DNA of 64,000 nucleotides. Origin: Shigella phage Henu11. Position numbers and translations under genes: made by a program. The notes beneath the pieces were generated by a model. The model was not told where the DNA came from, did no database searches, and saw only the letters and a list, made by a program, of their open reading frames with translations. This document shows, piece by piece, positions 34,766 through 63,847 of the stretch; within the stretch, counting starts at the first letter, position 1, and each line of letters opens with the position of its first letter. The stretch lies in sequence record OM953433. The stretch is one strand, 5' to 3'.

Positions 34766-34839
34766 TGTGGCCTTATCATAAATGGATAATGACCCATGCT
34801 GTGAACATGGTCTATACGGGTTCGATTCCCGTAGGTCAC
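34766..34839 (+). tRNA. tRNA-His (GTG)
   Basis: acceptor gtggcct/aggtcac; anticodon arm ccatg-ctgtgaa-catgg; T-arm acggg-ttcgatt-cccgt. Confidence 0.7.
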
Positions 34840-34847
34840 CCCAATTT

Positions 34848-34923
34848 AATAGCTCAATTAGCTTATATGGTTAAAGCGCGTGTCTGAAAAACATGAGAAC
34901 AGGGTTCAAATCCCGATGGGCTA
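34848..34923 (+). tRNA. tRNA-Phe (GAA)
   Basis: acceptor tagctca/tgggcta; anticodon arm cgtgt-ctgaaaa-acatg; T-loop ttcaaat. Confidence 0.6.
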
Positions 34924-34941
34924 CCAACTTTATAGGTGCAT

Positions 34942-35677
34942 AATGAAAGAGATGACAGAACAAAGTAAAGAGATTTTTAATCTCCTTAAAACTGGTAATG
35001 GGTTCTCTAACCCTCTTATTACTGGTGCAGCAGTTCTTGGTGGTACTGTAGCTGCTTCTCAATCATTAGTGAACTCAATTAGTTCTGTAACAGACCCTGC
35101 AACACAACAGATTTTAGTTGCTGCTGGACTGACAACAGCCTTATTAGGAAGCTTCACAACAAGCCTTGGAAGTACAACTTCAACGACAAGTACACTCACT
35201 GAGTATGGACAAAAGTCTGTAGATGAGTTTTCACAACGTATGCAAGTAGCTAAAGGTTACTCTAACGTTATGGGAGCAGCAGGTGAACAGGTTGGATGTA
35301 CACCGTTTAGCGGTATCATGGGCGTAGCTACCGAGTACGGTAATAAAGCGATGGATTTGATTAATACCTCCATAGACGCTGTAAATAGCGTCCTAAGCGA
35401 TTTGCAAGATGCAATCGACCAAGGACTAGATACAATCTCTGAACTCGCTACACAGGCCGTTACAGCGATTAATGAGGGTATTACAAAGATTACTGCATAT
35501 GCTAATGAAGTAACTCAGATGATTGCAGATGAAGCAGCACTGATTGCAGAATACCTGAAAACAAATATTAATGGTTTCCTTGCGAATGTTCTACCAAGCT
35601 GGTTTGACGATTCATGTAAAACTGGTGTGATTGATACTATCGCAACTCCAGAGATGAAAGAAGCTCTGAACAAATAA
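34942..35677 (+). CDS. hypothetical Ala/Thr/Ser-rich low-complexity protein
   Basis: ORF track 34880..35677 trimmed to ATG 34942 to clear tRNA-Phe. Confidence 0.5.
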
Positions 35678-35678
35678 T

Positions 35679-35768
35679 GGAAGATTAACCCTAAAAGGTA
35701 AGGGAGCAGTTTGCTAAACTGCCAGTAACCGAGAAATCGGCGTACCAGTTCAAGTCTGGTATCTTCCT
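35679..35768 (+). tRNA. tRNA-Ser (GCT), type II
   Basis: 90 nt; acceptor ggaagat/atcttcc; anticodon arm gcagt-ttgctaa-actgc; T-arm accag-ttcaagt-ctggt. Confidence 0.7.
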
Positions 35769-35778
35769 CCAATTTAAT

Positions 35779-35851
35779 GTATCGGTGACAGAAATGGATA
35801 TGTGCCTGTCTGCAAAACAGGTTTATGAGGGTTCAAATCCCTTCCGATACT
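35779..35851 (+). tRNA. tRNA-Cys (GCA)
   Basis: acceptor gtatcgg/ccgatac; anticodon arm cctgt-ctgcaaa-acagg; T-arm gaggg-ttcaaat-ccctt. Confidence 0.75.
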
Positions 35852-35884
35852 CCAATTTATTAATATCTCTCTCAAAGTTATTAT

Positions 35885-45021: not shown

Positions 45022-46374
45022 ATGTGGAATCCAATTGTTAATGTAGATATTACATTGAACACAGCAGGAACTACAAGAGAAGGTTTTGGTTTACCATTAT
45101 TCCTTGCTTCAACAGATAACTTTGAAGAAAGAATCCGTGGTTATACTTCATTAACAGAAGTAGCTGAAGACTTTGATGAAAGTACTGCTGCGTATAAAGC
45201 TGCAAAACAGCTATGGAGCCAAACTCCAAAAGTAACTCAACTGTATATTGGTAGAAGAACTATGCAATATACTGTTTCTATTCCTGACACAGTGGCTGAA
45301 GGAAGTGAATATTCATTGACAGTTGCTATCGGTGGTGGTGTTTCTCAACCATTCCAATACACTGCAAAAGAAAACGACACAGCACTTATTGTCTTGAATG
45401 AGTTTAAATCACAGATTGAAGCAAGCCCAACAATTAAAGATGGTGTTAATGTTAGTGTAACAGGTACTGGTGCTTCTGCGACGATGATTATTACTAAAGC
45501 TGGTGATAATGACTTCGTAAAAGTAACGTCTATTACACCTACAACATCTATTGCAGCAACAACTGCTGACACGGCTTCCGCTGCTCTGGCATCCATTGAA
45601 GCATATTCAACAGATTGGTACTTCATCTCAGCAGAAGACAGAACTCAACAGTTTGTCTTGGCAATGGCTTCAGAGATTCAGGCTCGTAAGAAGATTTTCT
45701 TCACAGCTAATGCTGACGTTAAGGCTCTGCAAGGCACTGATTTGACCTCTGCAACAGATGTTCCGGCACAGTTAGCTAAGAGCAAGTACACTCGTACAGT
45801 TTGCTTGTGGCATCACACAGCCGAGTATGACTACCCAGAAATGGCTTACATCGCATATGGTTCTCCATATGATGCAGGTTCAATTGCTTGGGGTAACGCT
45901 CAATTAACTGGTGTTGCAGCATCTCTACAACCTGCTAACCAGAGACCACTGACAAGCATTCAGAAGTCAGCTTTGGATACCCGTAGCTGTAATTTCATTG
46001 ACCTCGATGGTGGGGTTCCTGTAGTGCGTAGAGGTATCACTTCTGGTGGTGAATGGATTGATATTGTACGTGGTGTTGATTGGCTTGAATCTGATTTGAA
46101 AACATCTCTGAGAGACTTGCTAATTAATCAGAAGGGTGGTAAGATTACTTATGATGATACTGGTATTACCCGTATTCGTCAGGTCATTGAAACATCTCTT
46201 CAGCGAGCAGTTAACAGAAACTTTTTGTCAACTTACACCGTTACTGTTCCTAAAGCCTCACAAGTTGCATTGGCAGATAAGAAAGCACGTATCCTGAAAG
46301 ACGTTACCTTCCACGGTATTCTTGCAGGGGCTATCTTGGATGTTGACTTGAAAGGCACAGTGGCTTACGAATAA
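45022..46374 (+). CDS. tail sheath protein (putative)
   Basis: 450 aa ORF preceding the tube, chaperone and tape-measure genes. Confidence 0.5.
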   Translation: MWNPIVNVDITLNTAGTTREGFGLPLFLASTDNFEERIRGYTSLTEVAEDFDESTAAYKAAKQLWSQTPKVTQLYIGRRTMQYTVSIPDTVAEGSEYSLTVAIGGGVSQPFQYTAKENDTALIVLNEFKSQIEASPTIKDGVNVSVTGTGASATMIITKAGDNDFVKVTSITPTTSIAATTADTASAALASIEAYSTDWYFISAEDRTQQFVLAMASEIQARKKIFFTANADVKALQGTDLTSATDVPAQLAKSKYTRTVCLWHHTAEYDYPEMAYIAYGSPYDAGSIAWGNAQLTGVAASLQPANQRPLTSIQKSALDTRSCNFIDLDGGVPVVRRGITSGGEWIDIVRGVDWLESDLKTSLRDLLINQKGGKITYDDTGITRIRQVIETSLQRAVNRNFLSTYTVTVPKASQVALADKKARILKDVTFHGILAGAILDVDLKGTVAYE

Positions 46375-46388
46375 AGGAGTAATTAGGA

Positions 46389-46835
46389 ATGGCTATGTAT
46401 CAGCAATATTCCCCTAAAGATGTAGTTTGTAGCTGGAATGGCATTGCCATTGAAGGTTTTGCACCAGACTCATTCTTGCGTCTTCAGAGAACTTCTCCAC
46501 TTGTTACGCCAGTTGTAGGTGCAGGTGGTCAAGTAGCTCTGACAAGAAATGCAGACAAGACAGGTACGATTGAGATTGAGCTAATGCAGACTTCTCTATC
46601 AAACCAGATGCTTTCTGCAATTCAAGCTAAACAAGATGACATGGAACTTGAAGAAGATATCTCATCTAACTTTGTAATTTACGACCCATCTGGTTCAGTT
46701 CTGGCAACAGGTATTAATGCTTGGTTGCAAGAGCTTCCACAGATTGAATTAGGTCGTGACCAGAACTCGAAAACTTGGATTTTCGGTTGTGAGAAGTTAG
46801 ACTACACTTCAACAATCCCTGCGTCAAGCGTTTAA
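46389..46835 (+). CDS. tail tube protein (putative)
   Basis: 148 aa ORF between sheath and chaperones. Confidence 0.5.
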   Translation: MAMYQQYSPKDVVCSWNGIAIEGFAPDSFLRLQRTSPLVTPVVGAGGQVALTRNADKTGTIEIELMQTSLSNQMLSAIQAKQDDMELEEDISSNFVIYDPSGSVLATGINAWLQELPQIELGRDQNSKTWIFGCEKLDYTSTIPASSV

Positions 46836-46911
46836 CAAATCCTAATAAGGGGGAGACTGTAAAAGGTCTTCCCCTTTTGTGTTTTTATAGCATAACTTTT
46901 AAGGAATCACA

Positions 46912-47313
46912 ATGAAGACTGAAACTAAAATGATTAATGGCAAGAAGGTAACTATTATTCTTCTTGGAGCAAGAGATGGTATCCGTATCTCTATGAAACT
47001 TGGTAAAGCAGTTGTACCAGCATTTGCACAGATGTTCTCTGGTTTAACCTCTAAAGATGGGGAATCTAAAATCCCATTTAAAGAACTCGTTGAAGCTTGC
47101 TTTGAAAAGGTTGATGAACTAGATATTGATGCAATGGCAGAGACACTATTTCAGGGGGCAACAGTTAATGACTTCCCACTGAAAATTGATAGTTACTTCC
47201 AAGCGAACTACGGTGAATTTATTGACTTTTTAGCTTTTGCTTTGGAGGCAAACTTCGGAAGTTTTTTCGAGGCAAGCATTTTCAAAAGCCTAACTTCTCA
47301 ACAGGAAGCTTAA
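46912..47313 (+). CDS. tail assembly chaperone (G-like)
   Basis: ORF track; slippery T_TTT_TTC near 3' end; -1 frame runs into the next ORF. Confidence 0.55.
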   Translation: MKTETKMINGKKVTIILLGARDGIRISMKLGKAVVPAFAQMFSGLTSKDGESKIPFKELVEACFEKVDELDIDAMAETLFQGATVNDFPLKIDSYFQANYGEFIDFLAFALEANFGSFFEASIFKSLTSQQEA

Positions 47314-47321
47314 GTTATTCT

Positions 47322-47549
47322 ATGCAGACCCCGCTGACTGACGGGGCTGTAAAGGCAACTTATGATGAAGCAGATGAGATGAAATTTGTGCTTGCTATTT
47401 ATGGTATGGATGGGTGTAAAGAAACACTCAACCAACTTTTTGATATGACCTTCGTTGATTTATTATCTCTACGTCAATATTTAGAAATCCAGAAGTCATA
47501 TAAAGAAGAAATGGCTTACAACGAACTCAGAAAAGCAGGTAAAATTTAA
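47322..47549 (+). CDS. tail assembly chaperone frameshift extension (GT-like)
   Basis: -1 frame from 47262 is stop-free through this ORF. Confidence 0.5.
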   Translation: MQTPLTDGAVKATYDEADEMKFVLAIYGMDGCKETLNQLFDMTFVDLLSLRQYLEIQKSYKEEMAYNELRKAGKI

Positions 47550-49785
47550 TGGCACAATATACAGTTGATAGTTTTATTGTTGAACTTGGATTCAGTGAAA
47601 AGGTTATTAAGGGTTTGCAAAGAGTTGAGAAAATGGCTATGCAGTCTGCTCAACGTATTGAACGCAATATCAATAAAGCCTTTGATGTGAAGCCTAATAG
47701 AAGTTCACAAGACGCTCTAAACAGACTTGTAAAAAACGCTCAGACTGCTTCAGGCAGAATCAATAAATCCCTAAACAATGCTATGAATTTAGATTCACAA
47801 GGTGTAAAATCACTTCGTAGATTAGAAACACAGGGTAAGAAAACAGCCAAAGAAATTAATAAGGCTCTAAGACAAGCTATGAATGTTGAAGGTAAAGTCA
47901 ATGTTCGTGGTGGAGTTGGTAGAGGCCGTGGTAACACTATCCCTCCGGTTGGAGGTGGTGGTTCACCTAGAGTTAGACCTGATATTGCTCAAAGACAGAT
48001 GGAAAGAATGTTTAACAACAACTTCTATTCTGGTTTGACTCGTCGTCTTGAAACAATTGGTGGACAAGGTAACCAAATGGCTACTTCCTTCAGAGGAAGC
48101 TTACAAGGAATCTATAATAAGTACAAAGGTAGTGGTAAAGTTGGTGAGTATGAGATGGAAGTCAAGAAACTCATTGACACTACCAAACGTTGGGTTATTG
48201 CAGAAAATGCTAGACTTAAGGCAGTCAGAGAGTCAGCTTGGTTACAAGACAGAGCAAACTCTTCACTAAGACAGCTTGTAGGTGGTTTTGTTTCAGCGTA
48301 TGCTATGCTGGAATTAGCTCAGAAGACTATTGATGCAGGTGTAAAGAGACAGTCTGCACAGTTAGCCTCAACAGCTATCTTTGGAGGGGATACACAGCAA
48401 GCTAGAATGTTCGCTGCTACGTTCTCTCACCAGATTGGTCAGAACTACACAGACACTATGAAGCAGTACTCAAACTTCGCTGCTGGTGCTCAACCAGAGT
48501 TAGGTTTTAAAGGAACTCAAGAGTTCTATAAAAATGCTGCTATGTTCTCACGTATTCGTGGTGCTTCTGATGAAGACTTGAAAGGTATCATGGTTGCTTT
48601 CCAGCAAATGGCATCTAAAGGTAAGATTCAGGCTGAAGAACTTCGTGGTCAGTTAGGTGACCGTTTGGCAGGTGCGGTTCAGTTATTTGCTGATGCTATT
48701 GGTAAAACTCCACAAGAACTTGACAAGATGATGAAAGATGGTCAGCTTCTTGCAAAAGACGTTCTACCAAAAGTCTCAGAAAAAATGAGAGAGCTTGTTG
48801 AAGCAGCAGGTGGTATGAATGCAGTTTCTAAGCAGACAGCTACCTCTATGGGTCAAGCAAAGGCAATGTGGGATAACACCCTTGTAGCTTTGTTTAACAA
48901 CTCTAGCGAAGGTATCTCACAACTCTCTAACTCAGTTGCAATGTTCTTGCAAGGTTCCCTTGGTACATCTGAAGCACTTGGTACAGGTATTGGTTACCTT
49001 TTAAAAGGTGCTAGTAACCTTCTAGACTTCGTGACAGATATCATGTACCGCATTTCTTCATTGTACTATACCTCAATGGGCTATTTCAAGGAATTAGATG
49101 CTAGTCAACAGAAACTAATCAAGGATTCTGCTGAGTTAGTTGCTACGTTCACCGCTATTGGTGTCTCAATTGCAGCTATTACAAAAGTCGCTAAAATCTT
49201 TGGTGGTACTGTAGCATTTGTCAAGAGTATCTTTGAAGAAGGTATCTTAGCTAAGATTGCACAGAAGTTTGGATTAACTACAGCAGCAGAAACAGCAGCT
49301 ACAACGGCTGGTGTATCAGCAACCAGAATGGCTCTTGGTGTAGGTGGTTCTGCATTAATGTTATCTGGTTCAGTTGACAAGAATGCTGGAAAGAGATTTA
49401 ACGAGGTTAACACACCTAATCCTTTCAATGAAGCTATCTCAGGAATCACTAATCCAAAACGTCCAATGTTCTTTGACCAGAATGGGCAACTTCAGTTTGC
49501 ACAATATACCACAGACACTTCTGGAAATATTCAGAGGGTTGATAATGGTTTGTCAAATTGGGATATTATCATGAACAACCTGTCTGAGTCTCTAAATAAC
49601 TTTGCAAACAAGTTTAACCAGACACCTATGATGATGACTCCCTCTGGACTACCATTGCAAACTAAGCAGACGCTTAACGTTTCCTTTAATCTGGATGGTA
49701 AGCAGATTGCTACTAAGATGGTGGATATCACTGATAAGAGTCAGGAAGATATTCTGTTAAACTCTAGCTACCCAGAGGATGAATA

Positions 49786-49786
<1 letters not shown>
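47549..49786 (+). CDS. tail tape measure protein
   Basis: 745 aa; helical N-terminus, Gly-rich and hydrophobic segments; after chaperone pair. Confidence 0.75.
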
Positions 49787-62962: not shown

Positions 62963-63262
62963 TTAATCTGCCAGCCTTAAGTTAAAATTTACACCAAGTT
63001 TTGTACAAGCATTAAGCATGTACTCTAAAGAAATCTTTTGAGGGTCGTTAATGATATTTGACACACGACTCTGCGAGATTTCACAAACAGTTGCTACTTG
63101 AGCCTGAGAAAGTTTTAGCTTCTCAATCTCTTTAAAGAATCTGAAAGATACAAAGTCTTTCATCTCTTCTATATCCATTGGACAGACATAACTCTCCATT
63201 TCAGCCTCTCTATCAGCCTCCCAAGAATCTTGAGGTGCATATGGGTCAAAGACTTCATTCAT
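62963..63262 (-). CDS. helix-turn-helix DNA-binding protein (XRE-like)
   Basis: HTH-like segment LSQAQVATVCEISQSRVSNII. Confidence 0.5.
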   Translation of the reverse strand: MNEVFDPYAPQDSWEADREAEMESYVCPMDIEEMKDFVSFRFFKEIEKLKLSQAQVATVCEISQSRVSNIINDPQKISLEYMLNACTKLGVNFNLRLAD

Positions 63263-63458
63263 CTTTCTTTCTCCGTTTTCGAGAAGTGTCTATTAACGAA
63301 TCAAGATTAGTTGCTCTGACGTTTTCACGAGTCCCATTAATGTAGTTATCTAAAGATTCTACAACGGTTGCAAAATCATTAGCCCAAACTCTGTAAATAA
63401 CTACTCCGTCATCATCGACCACTTCACCATAGTCTGTTCTACAGATGTTCTTCTTCAT
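63255..63458 (-). CDS. hypothetical small protein
   Basis: ORF track 67 aa. Confidence 0.45.
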   Translation of the reverse strand: MKKNICRTDYGEVVDDDGVVIYRVWANDFATVVESLDNYINGTRENVRATNLDSLIDTSRKRRKKDE

Positions 63459-63460
63459 GA

Positions 63461-63847
63461 TTATAAACCCATGCAGTGACGATTTTCAATAAAGTATTGA
63501 ACACCTTTGAAAGACTCACGCATAAAGTTGTCTTTCACATCTTCTACAGTCTCAATACCTTTGCTATCAAGAAGGTCAACGTTCTGAGTGACCATCTCAT
63601 CTGCTAATCTGTCATAGTAATCTCCCATAAAATGGTAGTTGTAGTCAACCATCTTATCAGTCATTTCTTGAACAGTCTGAGCAGACAACGGTTTAGTCAA
63701 CTCTCCAGCATTTGAAGCGATTTTCTGTACAATCTTACAAGATTCTAAAGCGATACCATTAAAGTTTGCTTCAGGCATCTTCATAGCTGCTGCACTAAAA
63801 CTCATACCAAGAGCAATGACACCAACAAGTAACTTTTTCATAAACAC
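63461..63847 (-). CDS. secreted/periplasmic protein (signal peptide)
   Basis: ORF track; N-terminal MKKLLVGVIALGMSFSAAA. Confidence 0.5.
   Translation of the reverse strand: MFMKKLLVGVIALGMSFSAAAMKMPEANFNGIALESCKIVQKIASNAGELTKPLSAQTVQEMTDKMVDYNYHFMGDYYDRLADEMVTQNVDLLDSKGIETVEDVKDNFMRESFKGVQYFIENRHCMGL

Follow-up and report, generated by a model that had tools for sequence, protein, structure and literature searches.

The DNA analysed here (the window) is a stretch of 64,000 nt from Shigella phage Henu11 (sequence record OM953433), taken as one strand, 5' to 3'. The phage is a myophage of the Mooglevirus type (Ounavirinae, Felix O1-like). Over positions 46389-47700, where 262 phage records match, it is 100% identical to Henu12, 99.4% identical to Sf14 and about 95% identical to the Citrobacter phages Michonne, Mordin and Moogle. 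Pfam and PHROG matches give the gene order of this region as sheath, tube, ORF1, ORF2 and tape measure, followed by baseplate genes, and all the features described below up to the tape measure gene lie on the + strand.

The tail sheath gene (45022..46374) matches phrog_205, tail sheath (5e-118), and Pfam DUF3383, and carries the same name in Sf14. It is followed by the tail tube gene (46389..46835; Pfam KPP10_Orf10 and phrog_280), whose protein the structure paper on Sf14 names tail tube gp40 (PMC11821841). Between the tube and chaperone genes stands a terminator-like hairpin (46847..46886), made of a 12-pair stem and then the T-run TTGTGTTTTT, and the Michonne record has a terminator annotated at the equivalent place. 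This hairpin could lower the expression of the chaperone and tape measure genes relative to sheath and tube. The tape measure protein gene itself (47549..49786) is recognised by Pfam TMP_3 (4e-17) and by phrog_4036 (1492 bits).

The two chaperone reading frames and the predicted fusion

ORF1 (46912..47313) encodes, by normal decoding, a G-like tail assembly chaperone of 133 aa with a pI of 4.8. The sequence AGGA lies 6 nt before its ATG at 46912, and its stop is the TAA at 47311-47313. The protein belongs to Pfam family PF21822 (Phage_TAC_15; 1e-19, 71.7 bits against a gathering threshold of 22), with a match that spans residues 9-122 and positions 1-124 of the 127 in the profile; the Pfam scan found no family besides this one for the chaperone product. 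The PHROG match, phrog_1613, is likewise a tail assembly chaperone (1e-48).

ORF2 (47322..47549), annotated as a separate gene in Henu12 and Sf14, is in the -1 frame relative to ORF1 and comprises 75 aa when counted from its ATG at 47322. This ATG, 8 nt past the ORF1 stop, has no well-spaced Shine-Dalgarno (SD) sequence, a GGAAG being found 13 nt upstream. In the enterobacterial relatives an in-frame ATG also occurs near the ORF1 stop, at a position that varies between subgroups. The last upstream stop of the -1 frame is at 47223-25, and from 47226 the frame stays open to the TAA at 47547-49, so that it contains the whole of ORF2 and overlaps ORF1 by 88 nt. Its stop overlaps the tape measure ATG as TAATG (47547-47551), and ribosomes arriving there after a frameshift, or after translating ORF2, would thus terminate right on the tape measure start.

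The slippery heptamer T_TTT_TTC (47262..47268, +) is situated within this overlap. The ORF1 codons at the site are AGT (47260-62), TTT (47263-65) and TTC (47266-68), followed by a G at 47269. Since ORF1 starts with the ATG at 46912, TTTTTTC reads as X_XXY_YYZ in the zero frame, 15 codons from the ORF1 TAA. The earlier note had proposed an in-frame heptamer near the end of ORF1 and a -1 frame free of stops through 47322..47549; the codon coordinates and the open frame described above bear out both statements. The window also carries an array of 26 tRNA genes (30455-35854, +), among them tRNA-Phe(GAA) at 34851-34926, which reads both slippery-site codons, and tRNA-Arg(ACG) at 34176-34252, by which the first -1-frame codon, CGA, would be read.

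The T-like segment read after a slip (47268..47549, +) consists of 93 codons and a stop, and matches phrog_4963, tail assembly chaperone (1e-51). The predicted fusion would join ORF1 residues 1-119 to 93 new residues, beginning R-G-K-H-F-Q, in a protein of 212 aa and 23.9 kDa. Its predicted junction peptide is IDSYFQANYGEFIDFLAFALEANFGSFFR, and the peptide encoded in the -1 frame upstream of the Met at 47322 is HFQKPNFSTGSLSYSMQTPLTDGAVK. A PDB sequence search with the 212-aa fusion gave matches at chance level only (E > 0.04). With the fusion as query, a search of a large protein collection returned 86 homologues, all of 123-136 aa and all carrying PF21822; this search listed proteins of ORF1 length only, so that it bears on ORF1, and candidate selection is probably behind the lack of ORF2-type matches. 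No in-frame G-T fusion occurs among these 86 homologues, which indicates that the two-frame layout is the rule in the Phage_TAC_15 family.

Conservation of the slippery site

Within the window, the 67 long ORFs (16,315 codons) contain 45 in-frame X_XXY_YYZ heptamers, which corresponds to a chance expectation of about 0.08 per 29-codon overlap. The site at 47262 is the sole in-frame TTTTTTC of these 67 ORFs and, at 95 codons, has the longest -1 continuation of the 45 heptamers. The window has fewer copies of TTTTTTC than expected: 11 on both strands together, against 28.8 +/- 4.7 from shuffles, and only three on the + strand. This depletion is consistent with avoidance of slippery runs, and fits the under-representation of TTTTTTC in E. 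coli genes (PMC4066793). The same screen yielded a second candidate on the minus strand, G_GGT_TTA at 63470, which precedes the stop of ORF 63847..63461 by two codons. There the -1 frame continues for 71 codons, but this extension is an ORF that has an ATG of its own (63458..63255), and thus probably just the next gene; the candidate was rejected.

Relatives were collected from IMG/VR (32 with ORF1 as query, and 16 more distant ones through an alignment of ORF1 homologues) and from GenBank loci. The pattern AAY TTY NNN NNT TTT TTC G, in the ORF1 frame and at a homologous N-F-x-x-F-F position, is present in 50 of 50 related loci, and in every one of them the -1 frame is open past the ORF1 stop, with no stop codon between the heptamer and the ATG region. 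The set includes Erwinia-phage-like relatives with 44-46% protein identity and metagenomic relatives with 25-30% protein identity, whose loci have 57-65% G+C. In the long open frames of these GC-rich loci the third codon position is T in 17% of cases and TTT makes up 39% of Phe codons, by a rough tally that may include non-coding frames. In one lineage, Asp replaces the Ser before Phe-Phe and the T is still kept (GAT TTT TTC), which shows that the base is conserved and not the peptide alone.

The -1-frame peptides are themselves homologous and can be aligned across the groups of relatives, the distant ones included. After the heptamer, the -1 frame contains no ATG, GTG or TTG for 57 codons in loci L031 and L033, for 39 codons in L032 and for 64 codons in L043 and L044. 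A comparable case is provided by Erwinia phage phiEa104 (NC_015292; locus L052, 770-1002), whose record gives the second tail assembly chaperone as an ORF of just 37 aa. This ORF is preceded by 119 nt with homology to the T part, over which its frame is open but offers no start codon. In these loci, a T-like part could therefore be produced only by a change of frame, and the phiEa104 record should probably be amended to a CDS joined by slippage.

Nucleotide identity between the Moogle/Felix O1 and Erwinia-phage groups is 0.97 over 47263-47283, against a mean of 0.53 over both ORFs, and the conservation peak sits on the heptamer, not on the ATG at 47322. The 41 nt at 47251-47291 are the sole blastn similarity to Erwinia phages among the matches listed (29 Erwinia records). 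Directly after the heptamer lies a nearly invariant block of 23 nt, GARGCAAGCATTTTCAAAARCCT (47269..47291, +), which is read in both frames; it is conserved within the Ounavirinae only, and missing from distant lineages that keep the heptamer. It was accordingly rejected as a universal stimulator, and the constraint of coding in two frames is the simplest explanation for its conservation and the more likely cause.

The comparison also agrees with the two further statements of the earlier note. The conserved chaperone arrangement ahead of the tape measure gene, which it had named, is recovered in the gene order, in the Pfam and PHROG families and in the 50 loci; and its reading of a programmed -1 frameshift gains support from the conserved heptamer, the startless -1 ORFs and the Michonne annotation described below.

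Probable programmed frameshifting and alternative readings

Several features of the G/GT type are found together at this locus, namely two ORFs between the tube and tape measure genes, a -1 overlap, an in-frame heptamer, and conservation of the arrangement in relatives. On comparative grounds, we consider it highly probable that this Felix O1-like (Mooglevirus) myophage uses the site for programmed -1 ribosomal frameshifting of the lambda G/GT type. In the literature, no direct evidence of the fusion protein came to light for any Ounavirinae phage, and the support for the frameshift is thus comparative.

Under this proposal, most ribosomes would finish ORF1 at its own stop and release the 133-aa acidic chaperone. 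A minority would slip while tRNA-Phe occupies UUU in the P site and UUC in the A site (47263-47268), move back one base to UUU UUU, and go on in the -1 frame with CGA and a further 92 codons to yield the 212-aa fusion of ORF1 residues 1-119 with the T-like domain. By standard decoding rules, tRNA-Phe(GAA) would read both codons and could re-pair with UUU UUU after such a one-base backward slip. In E. coli, the H_HH.U_UU.Y class, of which U_UU.U_UU.C is a member, ranks with the most efficient -1 heptamers, and U_UU.C is the second best A-site tetramer (PMC4066793). By analogy with lambda, the shared G part would bind the tape measure protein, and the rarer T part would recruit the tube protein for polymerisation around the tape measure; a fixed slip rate would, we propose, fix the ratio of the two products.

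An SD-like GGAGG (47244..47248, +) lies 13 nt upstream of the heptamer and may act as a stimulator. GGAGG occurs only four times, this copy included, on the + strand of the 23-kb structural module (36285-59193), and the codons that form it are minority choices (Leu codons ending in G, 27%; GAG, 28% of Glu codons). Of 21 distinct relatives, 18, among them the GC-rich ones, have (G)GAGG at this spacing of 13 nt; the Erwinia-phage-like group lacks it. Part of this conservation may come from a conserved A-L-E-A peptide. Stimulation of -1 frameshifting by internal SD-like sequences 9-14 nt upstream has been described, with dnaX as an example (PMC5009743), and the element here falls within this range. 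From its sequence and spacing, GGAGG at 47244-47248 is a plausible dnaX-like stimulator; upstream elements of this sort are, to our knowledge, not recognised among tail chaperone frameshifts.

Downstream of the site, no stimulatory RNA structure was detected: the fold of 47262-47350 has a z-score of -0.96, and the consensus fold of nine diverged relatives reaches only -1.1 kcal/mol, with nearby pairs that are invariant and no informative covariation. A scan of 46800-47700 against Rfam (E <= 1) returned no match. A CCCCG/CGGGG hairpin at about 47329-47347 was considered as a stimulator and rejected, as it is some 60 nt away on the 3' side and Felixounavirus-type loci have not retained it. The lambda frameshift is not known to need a downstream structure, and the lack of one here therefore does not speak against the model.

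An alternative reading is that ORF1 and ORF2 are independent genes, with ORF2 expressed only from the ATG at 47322, for instance by re-initiation, and an incidental heptamer. This is how ORF2 is annotated in Henu12, Sf14 and many other records. An in-frame ATG near the end of ORF1, which the window shares with the enterobacterial relatives, would suit this reading, as would the detection of gp42 without gp41 in Sf14 particles by mass spectrometry. However, the ATG at 47322 lacks an SD at a usable distance, and the homologous -1 ORF is startless for 39-64 codons in distant relatives. Moreover, the heptamer is kept at the nucleotide level, against codon bias, in all 50 loci; it is the heptamer and not the ATG that bears the conservation peak; and the stretch leading from one to the other is free of stops in every relative. 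Independent genes are thus very unlikely to be the whole explanation, and a separate ORF2 product alongside the fusion is possible.

Two further readings concern the heptamer itself. RNA polymerase could add one U in the T6 run, after which normal translation would give a protein with ...SFFR...; the site is indeed a homopolymer run, and since the product would be identical to that of ribosomal frameshifting, protein data cannot separate the two. The run, however, is of 6 T, against about 9 A or T in bacterial cases of transcriptional slippage (PMC5009743). It is also placed exactly as X_XXY_YYZ, a class efficient for tRNA re-pairing in E. coli, and the conserved SD-like element at 13 nt fits the ribosomal range of 9-14 nt, so that we regard a transcriptional origin as most unlikely. 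Finally, the heptamer might be a chance match next to a -1 frame open by accident, for which the expectation of about 0.08 per overlap leaves some room. Against this, the heptamer recurs in 50 of 50 loci over at least seven lineages, the -1-frame peptides are homologous, and no other in-frame heptamer of the window has so long a -1 continuation; the conservation of the heptamer rules out a chance match, a reading effectively refuted by the comparative data and left with next to no probability.

The Sf14 data bear on the fate of the T part in programmed frameshifting. In Sf14 (NC_042075), FDI99_gp115 corresponds to window positions 47322-47549 and FDI99_gp116 to 46912-47313. Mass spectrometry of Sf14 particles detected gp42, the ORF2 part, and did not detect gp41, the ORF1 product (PMC11821841, Table 1), which indicates that the -1-frame segment is translated in a phage 99.4% identical to this one. 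A fusion should yield tryptic peptides of both parts, and a gp42-only pattern is not expected from a simple GT fusion. The Sf14 preparation was pelleted and not gradient-purified, and also contained holin or lysozyme (PMC11821841); with such a preparation, the sampling of low-abundance proteins is sufficient to explain the non-detection of gp41. The supplement to the Sf14 paper gives no data on individual peptides of gp41 or gp42. A more elaborate scheme, in which a separate T-like product of about 8.7 kDa (made by re-initiation at the AUG at 47322 once ORF1 has terminated, or released from the fusion by cleavage) is particle-associated, unlike lambda gpG/gpGT, and in which the frameshift is boosted by the conserved dnaX-like GGAGG 13 nt upstream, seems to us rather doubtful.

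Annotation value and comparison with known systems

The value of this analysis is mainly one of annotation. Henu12, Sf14 and most of the approximately 260 related records list two separate chaperone genes or, like phiEa104, have the second one truncated, and the comparative evidence favours a joined CDS with slippage at TTTTTTC. The site is a well-conserved example of its kind, a single heptamer being retained all the way from the Felix O1-like phages of enterobacteria to metagenomic relatives rich in G+C. Two small leads come out of it, one on a possible SD-like stimulator upstream and one on what becomes of the T part, and it opens no new question.

The closest known cases are sister phages. 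The Citrobacter phages Michonne, Moogle, Mordin, Mijalis and Maleficent have the same ORFs and the same TTTTTTC, with about 95% nucleotide identity and no substantive difference from the window. In Michonne (KT001916, CPT_Michonne70/71), a joined CDS is annotated as "tape-measure chaperone" with the note "ribosomal slippage (47149)", and through the locus coordinates this base equals window position 47265, inside the heptamer. By contrast, Henu12, which matches exactly, and Sf14 have two separate genes annotated. The genome papers of Moogle, Mijalis and Michonne mention the frameshift, and all cite Xu, Hendrix and Duda 2004 (PMC4319497, PMC5543628, PMC4591319).

The lambda system shares the same layout, with two ORFs between the tube and tape measure genes and a -1 slip near the end of the first. 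Lambda is a siphovirus and its heptamer is G_GGA_AAG, whereas the phage studied here is a myophage with T_TTT_TTC and a GGAGG 13 nt upstream. Lambda gpG and gpGT were reportedly characterised by Levin et al. in 1993 and by Xu, Hendrix and Duda in 2004, 2013 and 2014. In the lambda model, the G part binds the tape measure protein and the T part recruits the tube protein, and frameshifting is presumed to keep G and GT in a fixed ratio for tail assembly (PMC5009743). Neither G nor GT is present in lambda virions (PMC5009743), whereas the T part was detected in Sf14 particle preparations.

Two other systems resemble the site in part. The heptamer of phage P2 is TTTTTTG, likewise T-rich and different in its last base from the one found here, and the protein family differs as well. 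In P2, which has a contractile tail, the -1 frameshift takes place between the chaperone ORFs that precede the tape measure gene and gives gpE and gpE+E' (Christie et al. 2002), with an efficiency 2- to 3-fold above that of lambda (PMC5009743). The E. coli dnaX gene has an upstream SD-like element in the 9-14 nt range, to which the GGAGG at 13 nt is similar. It slips on A_AAA_AAG, has a strong 3' stem-loop and reaches an efficiency of about 50%. Its frameshift product is the shorter one, whereas at the site described here no structure was found downstream and the frameshift product would be the longer. Because the feature is of a well-known kind, and the same site has been annotated and published in sister phages, the frameshift site of the Henu11 chaperone locus is to be counted among those already known.
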